From assembly GCA_050010515.1 (NCBI GenBank), contig JBEKKX010000030.1:1-29970 (forward strand): a stretch of DNA of 29,970 nucleotides, in the 5' to 3' direction. A program made the position numbers and the translations under genes. Below are positions 5,782 through 10,746 of this stretch, one piece after another (positions within the stretch are counted from its first letter, which is position 1; the number at the start of each line of letters is the position of its first letter). The stretch comes from Candidatus Bathyarchaeia archaeon. Its GTDB lineage: Archaea; Thermoproteota; Bathyarchaeia; Bathyarchaeales; Bathycorpusculaceae. The notes beneath the pieces were generated by a model. That model had not been told where the DNA came from and made no database searches. It saw nothing but the letters and a program-made list of their open reading frames with translations.

Positions 5782-6789
5782 TTAACGCGTTAAAGCAATC
5801 CATAGATGGTCTGAGACTGGCCTTGGCAGCATCTCTGCCTTGTCGTCTTTATGCATGAGTATTCGTTTGTTGGGGTTTATGTTGAATTCGCCTATGACGT
5901 CAGCGTAAATGTGCTCTAGGCTTAAGGCATCGATTATTTTGTTTGCGGCTTCTGGCTGTGCAGCAATAAGCAATGCGCCTGAACTAATCAGTTGCAAAGG
6001 GTCAATTTCATAATACCTGCAGATTTTGGCAGTTTCAGGTTCAACCGTAATTTTTTCTTCAAAAACCCGTACGCCTAAGCCAGCAGCGTCTGCCATTTCG
6101 TGGATTCCGTTTAGTATTCCGCCTTCTGTTGGGTCATGCATGGCGTGGACTCCACCTGTTCTGTAAGCCGTTAATGCGTCTTTTACTACGCTTATTTGGC
6201 TGTAGAAGCGTTTGGCGCTCTCAAGTATGCTCAGAGTAAAAACTTTTTTTAGTTGCTCTTCGCGGTCGGAAGCTAAAATTGCCGTGCCTTCAATTCCAGC
6301 GGTTTTTGTTAAAATCAGCTTGTCGCCTGCTTTGGCGCCTGCAGCAGTAACGTATTTGCCTTTTTCAGTTAAGCCCATGACGCAGCCAACAACAATAGGA
6401 TTAGCCAGCCCCGGAGTTGACTCACAATGCCCTCCAACAATCGCAATGCCAAGCTCCTTAGCGGCAGCGTTCATTTGAGTGCTTATGGTTTCAACGATTT
6501 TGCTGTCAGCGTCCTCTGGCAAAAGCAAGCATGAGAAGAAAAAGGCGGGTTCAACCCCAAACGTAGCAACATCATTAGCGTTAATGTTGATGGCTTCCCA
6601 TCCGATACGTTCAACTGCACCAGTGATTGGATCCATGGAAACGATGGCGTTCTTGCTTCCAACATCTAACACTGCACCATCTACTCCAGCAGCGGGACCC
6701 AAAACTACTTCGCTACGTTCGGCGCCAAGGTTTTTGAACACTACTTCTTTTAGGATGTCTATCGGGATTTTTCCAGGCGGCAGTTTCAT
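5782..6789 (-). CDS. AIR synthase (PurM/HypE/ThiL/SelD superfamily) protein, ATP-dependent, substrate unknown
   Basis: SMDPITGA, NANDVATFG, IVGGHCE, AKAGDKLILTK and AMHDPTEGG motifs; lacks the HypE C-terminal PRIC. Confidence 0.9.
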   Translation of the reverse strand: MKLPPGKIPIDILKEVVFKNLGAERSEVVLGPAAGVDGAVLDVGSKNAIVSMDPITGAVERIGWEAININANDVATFGVEPAFFFSCLLLPEDADSKIVETISTQMNAAAKELGIAIVGGHCESTPGLANPIVVGCVMGLTEKGKYVTAAGAKAGDKLILTKTAGIEGTAILASDREEQLKKVFTLSILESAKRFYSQISVVKDALTAYRTGGVHAMHDPTEGGILNGIHEMADAAGLGVRVFEEKITVEPETAKICRYYEIDPLQLISSGALLIAAQPEAANKIIDALSLEHIYADVIGEFNINPNKRILMHKDDKAEMLPRPVSDHLWIALTR

Positions 6790-6816: not shown

Positions 6817-7362
6817 TTAAGTTGTTGATACAATTCTTGACCTGTAGCTTCTCCAAGCTTCTGGAAGTCGTTTGCGAAGTATAATGGCTATTGGAATCCC
6901 CACTATTCCACCCGCGGCTATTTGCAGTATGTTGAAGGGCACTTCGCCCAGCGCTGCCCAGCGTAATGACAACCCGAAAAACTCAGCTAAGAAATACCCC
7001 GATACCATTTCGGCACCTGCTATGACCACTGCACTGATGTCTCTTTTTCGGCTTAGCCTGTTTGATATTAAGCCTGCGATGAGCCCTTCAGCGCCTTTTA
7101 TGATGAGTGTGAACGGTGCATAGACGAAGTATCCGCTGGATACATCGGATATTGCGGAGCCAACCCCGCCGGCGAATCCGCCGACGATTGGACCGAAAGT
7201 GAGGGCGGTGGCGAAGATCATGATGTCTCCGAAGTTTAGGTATCCTTTTGTGGCTGGAATGGGAATTTGCACAAGGAAGGTTGCGACTGCTACAAGGGCT
7301 GCCATGACTCCTGCTTGTGCAATTATGAGGGTGATTCTTTTTCTGTCGGGTTGAGGTTGCGT
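6817..7362 (-). CDS. ECF transporter S component (HmpT/PdxU-like)
   Basis: AALVAVAT..IPIPATKGYLNFGD..GSAISD..GY..YAPFTLIIKG; about 6 TM segments. The frame is open 19 codons above ATG 7305 to an ACG at 7362 behind GGTGA, so the start is uncertain. Confidence 0.85.
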   Translation of the reverse strand, partial: TQPQPDRKRITLIIAQAGVMAALVAVATFLVQIPIPATKGYLNFGDIMIFATALTFGPIVGGFAGGVGSAISDVSSGYFVYAPFTLIIKGAEGLIAGLISNRLSRKRDISAVVIAGAEMVSGYFLAEFFGLSLRWAALGEVPFNILQIAAGGIVGIPIAIILRKRLPEAWRSYRSRIVSTT

Positions 7363-7375
7363 TTTTTCACCTTGG

Positions 7376-7418
7376 TAGTTGCAACTTTAGTATAGTTGCA
7401 TCTATACTATCAAATAAG
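7376..7418 (-). promoter_or_regulatory. Promoter with palindromic operator for the S-component/AIRS operon
   Basis: TAGTATAG-TTGCAT-CTATACTA at 7388-7409 (22 bp, one mismatched pair), a second half-copy TAGTTGCAACT at 7376-7386, and TATA-like CTTATTTG (minus strand) at 7411-7418. Confidence 0.7.
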
Positions 7419-7435
7419 CGTTACGGAACCAACAA

Positions 7436-8845
7436 TCACAAAAGCAGCTGTATATCGTCGAATGCTGCCAGAACCTTCCTTCCACGCTCAGTGATTCGGA
7501 AGAATTTCTTGCCGTTCTCCTCATAGCCGACCACCAACCCCTTATCTGACAGCTCGTTGAGATGTTGATAGACAGCGGCGCGCGTCATTATCTTGCCTAA
7601 TTGTTTCCATAAATCATAACCGTACGTGTCCTTTTCACTGAGAATTTTAAGGATTTTTTGTTTAGTGCTTACTGCAAGCCCTAAGCCTGCGGTTTTCTGT
7701 TTTTTCGTCATCGCCTGAAGAACATCGGTCGCTTTTAGCCCGCTCCCCGTGATAAGGCAGACTACGCTGCTGTCGCTGGAAATTCGGTCAACTTTCAGTT
7801 TCTGCAGTGCAGCCACCGTGGCTGAGCTGGCTGGTTCAGCGAAGACTCCTTCAAGCTTAGCTACTTGAAGCTCTGCAGCCAAAATATCAGCGTCTGAGAC
7901 AGTTAAAGCTAAGCCGTTTGATTCTTGAATCGCTTTAATTGCTAATTCGCTTTGTAATGGCTCGCCAACGAGAATAGCTAAGGCACGAGTGGATGGGTTG
8001 CAGGATTTTGAAGATTTTGAAGATTTTGAAGATGATTGTTCTGTTAGTTCGTTGACTATTGGGGCACAGCCTTCTGTCTGGACTCCTATCATTCGTGGCA
8101 ACGAGCGGGTTAGCCCTAACTTTTTGAGTTCTTTAAACCCTTTCCAAAGAGAATAGATGGTCCCGCCGCTTCCCATCGAAACTATAACCCAATCAGGAAC
8201 CGCAAACTGCTCATTAATTTCGAACGAAATAGTTTTTTGAGCTTCAACAACCAACGGGTTAAGTTCGGCAGTCGCTTGATACCAGCCTGTTTCCTTGGCT
8301 AAGGCAGAGGCCTTGCGGATGGAGTCATCCACAATGTCGCCTGATTCCTCGATGACGGCGTCGTAAGCAATCATCTGCGCCAGTTTTCCAACATCAACAA
8401 CTTTGGGAACCAAGACGTGGCAAATCAGTCCTGCTTTTGCGCCGTAGGCAGCTAAAGAAGCGCCCATGTTCCCGTTAGTGGCGCATACTATTGCCTCAAA
8501 GCCTTGGTCAATCGCGTTTGATGTCAAGAAAGCTGCTGCGCGATCTCTGTAAGAGTTTGTGGGGTTGCGTGTTTCATCCTTCAAATAAAGGTTCTTTAAC
8601 CCGACGGCTTTGGCAAGTCTTTCAGCCTTATGCAATGGTGTTCCGCCCTCTCCCAAACTGACCATGTGCTTAACAGGCGGAAGCATCTCTCTGTATCTCC
8701 AGAATCCCTGCTCTCTCGAAAATTTCAATTTTTCAGCTTCAGGTAAGTCAGCTATGAATTCCAGTGTGCCGCCGCATTTTTCACAGTTGCTTCTCAACGG
8801 GTAAACTGGAAGCTCTGTACCGCAGTGAATGCATCGAAGCATCAA
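7436..8845 (-). CDS. Threonine-synthase-like PLP fold-II protein lacking the catalytic Lys, fused to a C-terminal PadR-like winged helix
   Basis: N-terminal CxxC..CxxC, SLGEGGTPL, NPTNSYRDR (canonical NPTGSFKDR), EPASS, ITGSGLK, then ILKILSEKDTYGYDLWKQL..AVYQHLNELSDKGLV..FFRITERG. Confidence 0.9.
   Translation of the reverse strand: MMLRCIHCGTELPVYPLRSNCEKCGGTLEFIADLPEAEKLKFSREQGFWRYREMLPPVKHMVSLGEGGTPLHKAERLAKAVGLKNLYLKDETRNPTNSYRDRAAAFLTSNAIDQGFEAIVCATNGNMGASLAAYGAKAGLICHVLVPKVVDVGKLAQMIAYDAVIEESGDIVDDSIRKASALAKETGWYQATAELNPLVVEAQKTISFEINEQFAVPDWVIVSMGSGGTIYSLWKGFKELKKLGLTRSLPRMIGVQTEGCAPIVNELTEQSSSKSSKSSKSCNPSTRALAILVGEPLQSELAIKAIQESNGLALTVSDADILAAELQVAKLEGVFAEPASSATVAALQKLKVDRISSDSSVVCLITGSGLKATDVLQAMTKKQKTAGLGLAVSTKQKILKILSEKDTYGYDLWKQLGKIMTRAAVYQHLNELSDKGLVVGYEENGKKFFRITERGRKVLAAFDDIQLLL
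8004..8033. repeat. In-frame 9-bp tandem repeat (GATTTTGAA)x3
   Basis: Three exact copies plus GAT; encodes SSKSSKSSK on the minus strand. Confidence 0.9.
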
Positions 8846-9497: not shown

Positions 9498-9537
9498 ATA
9501 TATCTTGGAATGCACATGATTAAAATTGGTGCTGAAC

Positions 9538-9858
9538 ATGAGTATCGAAAACTTAGTTATGCAGGCAAGCAAAAAATGTGAAATATTCGCAAACCCAATA
9601 AGAAGCTTCATCGCCGCATTTATCGCTGCCAAAGAAGAAGCAACATGGTCTGAACTGAAAGGTGCAATAGAAAAATGGGCAGGCAACGTCAACCCCAACA
9701 CGTTAAGCTTCCACCTAGGCGAACTTATGAGCGCAGGGTTTATAGTGAAAGTAGACATTAGGGGACAACCAAGATACACCGTTGTAAAAGAAAAACTCCC
9801 CGAACTACAGAGCCTGCTTGGAGAAGAACTCCTCCAAGCTGTAAAGGAGACTGCTTGA
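9538..9858 (+). CDS. ArsR-like winged-helix transcriptional regulator
   Basis: FANPIR..I..ATWSEL..NTLSFHLGELMSAGFI..RY; ATG 9538 follows GGTG. Confidence 0.85.
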   Translation: MSIENLVMQASKKCEIFANPIRSFIAAFIAAKEEATWSELKGAIEKWAGNVNPNTLSFHLGELMSAGFIVKVDIRGQPRYTVVKEKLPELQSLLGEELLQAVKETA

Positions 9859-10118
9859 TAATGCAAAAAAGACATAATTTACTTGAAATAAAAAACACGC
9901 TAAGGCAGCAAATTTCTGAAGCGTTGAATGAAGGTTATATGAACGTTGAAATAGAAATCTTTGACATGAACTTGAACGGTACTTACTCTGTCAAAGGTTC
10001 ATTCAACGTCGTTCCCTTCTTATCAACAACATTAAAAAGAAAAGGCACTTTTGTAACTGAACTTGATGAGAACTTACAAATTGTAAGTCTGAAGTTAACT
10101 GAGGATAAACAGCAGTGA
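9855..10118 (+). CDS. Hypothetical protein (helix followed by beta meander)
   Basis: 87-aa ORF overlapping the upstream stop, operon-like packing. Confidence 0.7.
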   Translation: MIMQKRHNLLEIKNTLRQQISEALNEGYMNVEIEIFDMNLNGTYSVKGSFNVVPFLSTTLKRKGTFVTELDENLQIVSLKLTEDKQQ

Positions 10119-10125
10119 AATTCAA

Positions 10126-10746
10126 TTGGACAAACCCTTAGTCACAGTTTTGCTATTGGGTAGTTTCGATCCTCAAACGAAAGCCAGACTGGAAAGCGTT
10201 AAGGACGAAATAGTGAAGACTTTTTCAGGAGAGAACACATATGCATTGCTTCTTGATAGCGTAGAAGTGTATTTTTCAGATGTCGTGGAAGTCTTGACAG
10301 AGCTTTCAAACGAAAACACGATTACCCTATTTGTATTTCAAGACAATCAACTTATTGATATGGCAGACCTAAAACTTGAAAAAGACGCCGACAGCACTGT
10401 TTATGATTACTTAAAAAAGCAATATAGAATCAAACAATTCAGTAGGCGGCCTATTTTTGAGAAGCTTGATGTATTAATGCGAAATGCTGAAGTTATTTTT
10501 TTGCTAAGGGATAAGGAGGAGACACGAGGGGGCGAATATCTAGAACTGATGCATGCTCTCTTCCGTGATCAGGCTGGAAAATTGTGGTTCCTTAAGAGAA
10601 ATGATATAGTACTTTCGTCAATGCTTATGGAGTATTTAGATAAATATGGCGTTAAACTGCGGACATATCAAGCAGAAAGTGATCTTAAGACAATGGTTAT
10701 AAGGGTTCTTAATTACCAGCTTCAAAATTCTGACACCGCAAATTAG
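10126..10746 (+). CDS. Hypothetical protein, possible nucleoside-deoxyribosyltransferase/TIR-like fold
   Basis: VLLLGSF..RLESVKDEI..ALLLD ... EKLDVLMRNAEVIFLL..TRGGEYLEL..KLWFLKR pattern. Confidence 0.7.
   Translation: MDKPLVTVLLLGSFDPQTKARLESVKDEIVKTFSGENTYALLLDSVEVYFSDVVEVLTELSNENTITLFVFQDNQLIDMADLKLEKDADSTVYDYLKKQYRIKQFSRRPIFEKLDVLMRNAEVIFLLRDKEETRGGEYLELMHALFRDQAGKLWFLKRNDIVLSSMLMEYLDKYGVKLRTYQAESDLKTMVIRVLNYQLQNSDTAN

Follow-up and report, generated by a model that had tools for sequence, protein, structure and literature searches.

A threonine synthase-like protein without its Schiff-base lysine as a probable vitamin B6-sensing transcription factor in Bathyarchaeia

The reverse strand of a 29,970-nucleotide stretch of DNA from a Candidatus Bathyarchaeia archaeon (contig JBEKKX010000030.1 of assembly GCA_050010515.1), referred to here as the window, encodes a protein in which a threonine synthase (ThrC)-like domain is fused to a PadR-type winged helix-turn-helix (wHTH). 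The ThrC-like domain carries arginine at the position of the lysine that forms the Schiff base with pyridoxal 5'-phosphate (PLP). This fusion is probably a PLP-sensing transcription factor for vitamin B6 supply that has been miscalled threonine synthase. An earlier sequence-only reading had taken it for a pseudoenzyme acting as a ligand-sensing transcription factor, and that view is supported by the loss of Lys throughout the family and by a canonical thrC elsewhere in the genome.

The motifs on which that reading was based, NPTNSYRDR, CATNGNMG, SMGSGGT, EPAS and TGSGLK, are all present in the 7436-8845 translation. The codons around the replaced lysine run ACA CGC AAC CCC ACA AAC TCT TAC AGA GAT CGC, with AGA at 8548-8546 encoding residue 100 when counted, as all residues are here, from the TTG start. 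Translation probably begins at the ATG that follows TTG by one codon, because identical database proteins have 468 amino acids (aa); Arg is then residue 99. Comparison with solved structures by phmmer places this Arg opposite the NPTGSFKDR lysine of three threonine synthases, 2zsj, 2d1f and 6cgq. Pfam assigns residues 62-367 to PALP (PF00291, E 1.8e-73), and the C-terminal winged helix suspected earlier is recognised as PadR (PF03551) at residues 398-460, with 43.8 bits against a cut-off of 27. The protein also scores 206 bits against the TIGR00260 cut-off of 167. The AlphaFold model has a ThrC fold (pLDDT 90.6), and its best Foldseek matches are threonine synthases (TM 0.83-0.89 on target). 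A disordered linker (residues 379-391) leads to the PadR domain, which is modelled as three helices, a beta wing and a C-terminal helix. The N-terminal zinc ribbon is common to the fusion protein and the canonical ThrC of its own genome.

The absence of Lys is a family-wide trait, as judged by alignment. Among close relatives, Arg is found in 121 of 121 sequences (the query and 120 matches at 76-100% identity). In a wider set of 150 representatives of 50%-identity clusters plus the query, Lys is absent from 74 of the 76 wHTH-bearing members that contain the motif region. The replacing residues are L (18), R (17), I (16), V (6), T (5), M (4), F (3) and one each of S, Y, A, N and H. Where no wHTH aligns, Lys is kept by 65 of 69 representatives; the other four are three Arg-bearing N-terminal fragments and one Val protein (P0236) that groups with the wHTH clade. 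Four Lys proteins of 610-620 aa bear a different C-terminal extension. With an Ile-type member as query, 120 of 120 relatives with PALP and PadR domains, designated the hydrophobic clade, have another residue in place of Lys (I 91, V 14, L 9, M 3, T 2, S 1). Members of this clade are publicly named threonine synthase and come from Bathyarchaeia, Nitrososphaerales and Thor-, Prometh-, Odin- and Sifarchaeia, so named; fusions are seen both in Thermoproteota genomes and among proteins named as Asgard. A midpoint-rooted FastTree tree of 146 catalytic domains leaves unresolved whether the two wHTH clades form one.

The Arg codon itself is confirmed in other data, since contigs from three further studies (X5, X7 and X6), none of which is flagged as a possible source, span 8546-8548 with zero differences; those of X12 do not reach it. 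A sequencing error (AAA to AGA, one base) is ruled out by the 121 of 121 Arg residues and the agreeing contigs of other studies, and a trait found across the family is not a single-base error. Two wHTH-bearing proteins nested in the Arg clade, P0122 (NPTSSFKDR) and P0125 (NPTNSFKDR), do have the Schiff-base Lys. They could have retained it or regained it by reversion, for which a single base change (AGA to AAA) would do, and by analogy with MocR regulators these two may bind PLP covalently.

A second, canonical thrC, which the sequence-only reading proposed to look for, is present on another contig with NPTGSFKDR and CASTGNTS and adjoins hom. It encodes 433 aa and lies within positions 629-3645 of L001 (G000:C4), between a 202-aa open reading frame (ORF) and the homoserine-dehydrogenase-like gene, the start of which overlaps the thrC stop.

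Apart from the lysine, the cofactor pocket is intact. Conservation was compared between 25 sequences of the Arg clade, 53 of the hydrophobic clade and 68 canonical Lys proteins. Residues N94, P95, T96, S98, F/Y99, D101, R102, G125, N126, G225, G227, E337, T366, G369, L370 and K371 are equally conserved in all three groups, and among PLP-pocket motif positions only the Lys position differs between the wHTH clades and canonical ThrC. The kept residues include the PLP phosphate loop, the Thr that contacts N1 and the stacking aromatic. Judged by this conservation, the PLP pocket of the fusion is still under selection. A homodimer predicted with two PLP molecules riding along scores 0.72, against 0.00 for the best of 3 controls. 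Of proteins solved as pairs, 20 of 30 reach that mark, and of those solved as single chains, 1 of 23. Contacts agree between runs to at least 53%, the partner pLDDT is at least 84 and the interface passes through the ThrC-like domain. Because ThrC dimers have already been solved, this pass may merely reflect likeness to ThrC.

Past the stop of the fusion gene lies a candidate operator, a perfect palindrome of the general form TAGTATAG-N6-CTATACTA. It sits inside the 130-nt gap between the fusion stop and a gene for an S-component of the energy-coupling factor (ECF) type, directly downstream of a TATA-like CTTATTTGA, and is followed after about 9 nt by a further AACTAC half-site repeat. The perfect palindrome has one copy in the 2.38-Mb genome; five other matches have 3 mismatches and are at or below shuffled expectation. 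Related loci were scanned over their whole 4-11 kb, and each of the 26 has one primary site that is always past the stop of the fusion gene. This site is perfect in 22 loci, has 1 mismatch in 3 loci and has 3 mismatches in L020. Five of the 26 have a second, overlapping site 17 nt further. The operator arms are kept across loci and the spacer is variable. The fusion proteins of these loci are 62-96% identical to the window protein, and the records are titled Bathyarchaeia or Bathyarchaeota, except L019 (Thermoproteota archaeon) and L029 (titled Limnocylindrales bacterium).

The genes behind the site change while the site remains. The order of fusion gene, site, S-component gene and a gene for an AIR-synthase-related (AIRS-like) protein holds in 23 of the 26 loci. 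In L014, L025 and L029 the same site precedes pdxS (341, 312 and 341 bits), then pdxT (about 184 bits) and then the AIRS-like gene, so one regulator type and its operator precede a transporter gene at some loci and the genes for PLP synthase at others. With the importer or pdxST as partner, the AIRS-like gene remains part of the unit. An ORF of 331 aa is inserted in L016, where the site stays with the displaced S-component gene and not with the regulator gene. At positions 4489-6811 of L025 the fusion gene (265 + 215 aa) and pdxS (203 + 91 aa) are each split into two ORFs, reflecting either assembly indels or decaying genes.

Vitamin B6 is indicated because a PLP-fold sensor with an intact pocket is combined with operator-linked genes that encode PLP synthase or an S-component resembling HmpT. 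The window S-component is the sole PF07155 member of its genome (E 1.3e-35), and its best match among solved structures is 4hzu_S (E 2.7e-14), with RibU reaching merely 0.008. HmpT pocket residues Y120, N140 and Q143 are kept as Y104, N125 and Q128. PMC4860826 identifies 4HZU chain S as HmpT/PdxU2 and its extracted substrate as pyridoxamine. PMC9997740 places PdxU and HmpT in PF07155, counts merely three known prokaryotic B6 transporters and states that import of PLP is a necessity for organisms in which all known B6 genes are missing, "unless an unknown kinase" exists. In the genome of the window, which is 98.5% complete, PdxS, PdxJ and PdxH are absent and neither PdxT nor the PdxK/ThiD family has a match above cut-off. 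Because no PF08543 (PdxK/PdxY/ThiD) member exceeds the cut-off, it also lacks a recognisable hydroxymethylpyrimidine-phosphate kinase. CbiQ/EcfT-type T components are encoded. Across 151 Thermoproteota genomes, PdxS is found in 8 of 55 fusion carriers and in 57 of 96 non-carriers, a comparison in which related genomes are not independent; in four of the 8 carriers with PdxS, pdxS lies beside the fusion gene.

The AIRS-like protein is most similar among solved structures to HypE and ThiL (E 1e-22 to 1e-12). An identity as ThiL was ruled out, as it scores 99 bits against a cut-off of 184 and a bona fide ThiL (252 bits) is encoded elsewhere in the genome. Because its gene is associated with this unit, a part in B6 salvage may be guessed at.

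From these data we infer a mechanism in which the Arg substitution would leave the ThrC-type domain no longer able to form an internal aldimine. The fusion protein would dimerise through its ThrC-like domains, each of which would reversibly bind PLP or another phosphorylated B6 vitamer in the otherwise intact pocket. The liganded dimer would then bind the 22-bp palindrome just past the TATA-like box and repress the operon of the S-component and AIRS-like genes. When B6 is scarce, the operon would be transcribed, and B6 would be imported and salvaged. Repression at sufficient B6 is the expected sign of regulation because of the position of the site just after the TATA-like box and the logic of feedback.

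Table 1. Features of the fusion gene and its neighbourhood in the window (strand: -, reverse;., none assigned).
Feature	Position	Strand	Basis or remark
ThrC-like Lys-less sensor and PadR wHTH fusion gene	7436..8845	-	469 aa from TTG start; probably 468 aa from ATG 8840-8842
N-terminal CxxC...CxxC zinc ribbon, residues 5-27	8765..8833	-	sequence; model strands E2-5, E11-13, E27-30
Fold-type II PLP-fold (PALP) domain, residues 62-367	7745..8662	-	PLP-site motifs retained, Lys excepted
AGA codon, Arg at the Schiff-base Lys position	8546..8548	-	codon reading and alignment
PadR-type winged helix-turn-helix, residues 398-460	7466..7654	-	conserved VYQHL recognition-helix motif
Candidate operator, perfect palindrome TAGTATAG-ATGCAA-CTATACTA, 22 bp	7388..7409	.	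unique in genome, conserved at related loci
ECF-type S-component (PF07155), putative B6 vitamer importer, likely regulated target	6817..7305	-	closest solved relative HmpT/PdxU2 (4hzu_S)
AIR-synthase-related (PurM/ThiL/HypE-like) protein, candidate B6 salvage enzyme	5782..6789	-	27 nt past S-component

The 55 fusion carriers among the 151 Thermoproteota genomes were recognised with a profile of the wHTH tail, which splits fusions (E ≤1.5e-22) from stand-alone PadR proteins (E ≥2.5e-17, 104-224 aa). Open frames of at least 435 aa are found in 53 of them, and two are cut by contig ends. Flanks of about 5-6 kb per side, less at contig ends, were examined in 46 carriers, whose species may overlap with those of the 26 loci. 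A PF07155-type S-component adjoins the fusion in 20 of these 46 loci by our own hidden Markov model, of which Pfam confirmed ten, and pdxS-pdxT is the divergent neighbour in 4 of 46 (Pfam). In two genomes of one family the S-component gene is followed by a fused ATP-binding cassette (ABC) ATPase and an unannotated ORF of 226-248 aa, which could be the T component.

The type of operator switches with the clade of the transcription factor. Among Arg-type loci with an S-component, 6 of 10 have a window-type site (at most 3 mismatches) ahead of the S-component gene, and the remaining four have related TAAAG-N-CTTTA palindromes, identified by eye. The palindrome of the hydrophobic clade differs: it reads CCTATATATAGG, followed after about 7 nt by CTTATATAT. 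The element CCTATATATAGG lies in the divergent gap beside S-component genes in four families and beside pdxS-pdxT in four genomes of one genus. Five genomes were searched for it, and in the three that have a perfect copy this copy is unique, one-mismatch matches being at control level.

Several observations weigh against a B6-sensing regulator. Only 3 of the 6 conserved HmpT pocket residues are identical in the window S-component. HmpT E41 is replaced conservatively by Asp (D27), H84 by Lys and Q87 by Glu, and the vitamer carried could, from these residues, differ from that of HmpT. At most of the orthologous loci displayed, the S-component begins with an ATG that lies 19 codons ahead of 7305, the first ATG of the window copy; at that position the window reads ACG (7360-7362, reverse strand). 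No canonical in-frame start occurs in the codons read just upstream of 7360-7362, and four other runs have no difference over 7226-7447. Because of this ACG, the window S-component either starts later, losing part of its first helix, or uses a non-canonical start. G077, of the same genus, and G061 and G133, of the same family, have neither the fusion nor PdxS at 96-100% completeness.

The wider survey adds to these points. An S-component or pdxST adjoins the fusion in only 24 of the 46 phylum-wide loci, and in 12 of 46 the fusion is preceded by a same-strand gatD-gatE-like pair (Pfam confirmed 3 of 3 submitted). When five genomes with this context were searched for TAGTAWAG-N6-CTWTACTA at up to 2 mismatches, the inspected matches were all inside ORFs and thus uninformative. 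S-component genes elsewhere in G065, G057, G017, G039 and G069 have related upstream palindromes, noted by eye and unscored. At every locus the palindrome of the hydrophobic clade stands 10-26 nt away from the start of the fusion gene, even where a divergent partner is lacking (L120, L129), so that it may serve chiefly in autoregulation or in part as a promoter element. The palindrome also contains TATATATA, because of which its conservation could be partly a promoter signal. Finally, in two relatives of the same taxonomic order, the Lys-less fusion has a canonical thrC as its divergent neighbour (L104, 6976-8211; L106, 3471-4730). This leaves room for a threonine link and is consistent with an origin by tandem duplication.

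The gatD-gatE context is found in two families (L085, L087, L090, L092, L105, L107, L109, L110, L113 and L115-L117). At these loci the fusion gene overlaps the pair start to stop or follows it after a gap below 25 nt, and neither an S-component gene nor pdxST is close by. This places a B6-type regulator in an operon for Glu-tRNA(Gln) amidotransferase, a setting for which the B6 reading does not account.

The thrC neighbours bear on a different account, in which the domain senses a metabolite of an amino-acid pathway (O-phosphohomoserine, homoserine, threonine or serine, possibly as a PLP adduct) and tunes amino-acid homeostasis. The domain is closest to ThrC, thrC also lies within 3-7 kb of the fusion in L112 and G045, and fold-type II proteins that lack Lys can hold PLP-amino acid aldimines, as Lys mutants of TrpB do. 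We nevertheless consider this account unlikely. The N-S-V-N-P-Y-R stretch of 2zsj, in which we take Asn/Ser and Arg to be the ligands of the O-phosphohomoserine phosphate, aligns with A-E-L-N-P-L-V in the fusion, position 199 being S/T/A in the Arg clade. Moreover, thrC intergenic regions contain no copy of the operator, and the recurrent operator-sharing neighbours are S-component genes and pdxST rather than thr genes.

The same changes at the substrate-phosphate positions argue against a protein that is still an enzyme, using non-covalent PLP or other chemistry, with the wHTH coupling catalysis to regulation as in the bifunctional BirA or RbkR. Conservation of the whole PLP pocket, Lys excepted, would suit such an enzyme, as would the Lys of P0122 and P0125 within the Arg clade, and RbkR is an earlier example of an archaeal enzyme with a second role in regulation (PMC5397151). 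The Lys position, however, is occupied by R, L, I, V, M, F, T, S, Y, A, N or H according to lineage, residues so varied that no single catalytic replacement fits, and retained catalysis is very unlikely. It is more improbable still that promoters or a different regulator account for the palindromes, the wHTH serving something other than the neighbouring genes. In favour of this, both palindromes are rich in AT and coincide with or adjoin TATA-like boxes, and the hydrophobic-clade site is close to the fusion gene's own start at every locus. Against it, operator type changes with clade, the window-type site follows a displaced target (L016) and persists at a swapped one (L014, L025, L029), perfect copies are unique per genome, and the wHTH motif GY..WK..VYQHL..EL is near-invariant.

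A B6-sensing fusion would have a functional parallel in the bacterial MocR/PdxR regulators. In both, a PLP-enzyme fold is reused as a sensor joined to a winged helix, and the role proposed for the fusion matches theirs in that genes for PLP synthesis and B6 transport are controlled through palindromic or repeated sites beside the regulator gene. The PLP fold of the fusion is nonetheless the ThrC-like type II and not type I, its wHTH is a C-terminal PadR and not an N-terminal GntR domain, its hosts are archaea and it has lost the Schiff-base Lys, which MocR regulators keep. Neither a GntR wHTH nor an aminotransferase domain is among the 11 families listed for the fusion protein. The two therefore look convergent and not homologous as whole proteins; by analogy, the fusion may work like the MocR/PdxR family while not being a member. 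PMC5320631 describes MocR/PdxR proteins as joining a GntR wHTH to an aminotransferase-like PLP domain and as regulating genes for B6, gamma-aminobutyric acid and taurine.

The fusion can be set beside the families from which its parts derive. With ThrC (TIGR00260, NF004170, PDB 2zsj/2d1f/6cgq/1v7c) it shares the fold at 34-38% identity and the PLP phosphate loop, and with the archaeal ThrC subfamily the N-terminal zinc ribbon. It differs from ThrC in lacking the Schiff-base Lys and a thr-pathway context, in its added wHTH and in the residues at the substrate-phosphate positions. Like PadR-family factors (PF03551), it combines a winged helix and a helix C-terminal to it with a candidate inverted-repeat operator, and it is predicted to dimerise. 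PadR proteins are small with an N-terminal wHTH, the stand-alone relatives having 104-224 aa, whereas the wHTH of the fusion is C-terminal to a sensor domain of 380 aa. HmpT/PdxU2, the best solved relative of the S-component, differs from it at H84 (Lys) and Q87 (Glu).

Enzyme-derived, cofactor-sensing transcription factors are an already-known kind. ThiR is an archaeal vitamin regulator derived from thiamine-phosphate synthase, and RbkR is one derived from riboflavin kinase, the latter as set out in PMC5397151. The fusion resembles both as an enzyme-derived, vitamin-sensing archaeal factor that, in place of riboswitches, would act on genes for synthesis and for ECF or other transporters. It differs from both in its enzyme ancestor, in its vitamin and in the loss of the catalytic residue across the family. 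What is new here is the conserved operator, the target genes and the tie to vitamin B6 rather than threonine. A bolder proposition, which we hold only tentatively and regard as doubtful in full, is that the Lys-less ThrC sensor is a convergent archaeal counterpart of PdxR across Thermoproteota and Asgard, that its regulon marks the first archaeal B6 importer and that the AIRS-like protein is a non-orthologous B6 salvage enzyme, possibly the "unknown kinase".

The miscall as thrC that the sequence-only reading foresaw is found in public sources, which name the fusion proteins "threonine synthase". The window protein scores 407.1 bits against the cut-off of 421 for the NCBIfam equivalog NF004170 (PRK05638) "threonine synthase". 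Because the match spans model positions 2-441 of 442, this model includes the wHTH. In the four of 151 Thermoproteota genomes with proteins above the cut-off, all of these proteins have Arg; NF004170 describes a Lys-less family, not an enzyme. Full-text searching found no description of a ThrC-wHTH regulator in the literature within reach, most subscription journals lying outside it. PMC11237513 mentions just a cysH-thrC fusion, and neither ThrC nor PadR occurs in the main text of PMC9997740.

How archaea sense, regulate and import B6, and where organisms without any known B6 gene get their PLP, is an unresolved problem, for which one three-gene unit supplies a testable regulator, operator, transporter candidate and enzyme candidate. 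The family is also a clean natural case of an enzyme turned sensor through loss of its covalent cofactor anchor. Hundreds of archaeal "threonine synthase" calls and one NCBIfam equivalog describe a protein that cannot be threonine synthase, and metabolic reconstructions for Bathyarchaeia, Nitrososphaerales and Asgard genomes can be led astray by such miscalls.

Two minor observations concern the window itself. A loop of the ThrC-like domain contains a low-complexity SSSKSSKSSKS insert (8003-8035, residues 271-281), where pLDDT dips to 65. Close orthologues have 462, 465 or 468 aa and the insert is shorter in L025, which suggests that the serine/lysine repeat varies in length by three-residue units. 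On the forward strand, 9526-10746 holds an HTH_20/ArsR-like ORF (110 aa) followed by two ORFs without a family match (87 and 206 aa). The first two ORFs overlap, 7 nt separate the second from the third, and the trio recurs in L008.

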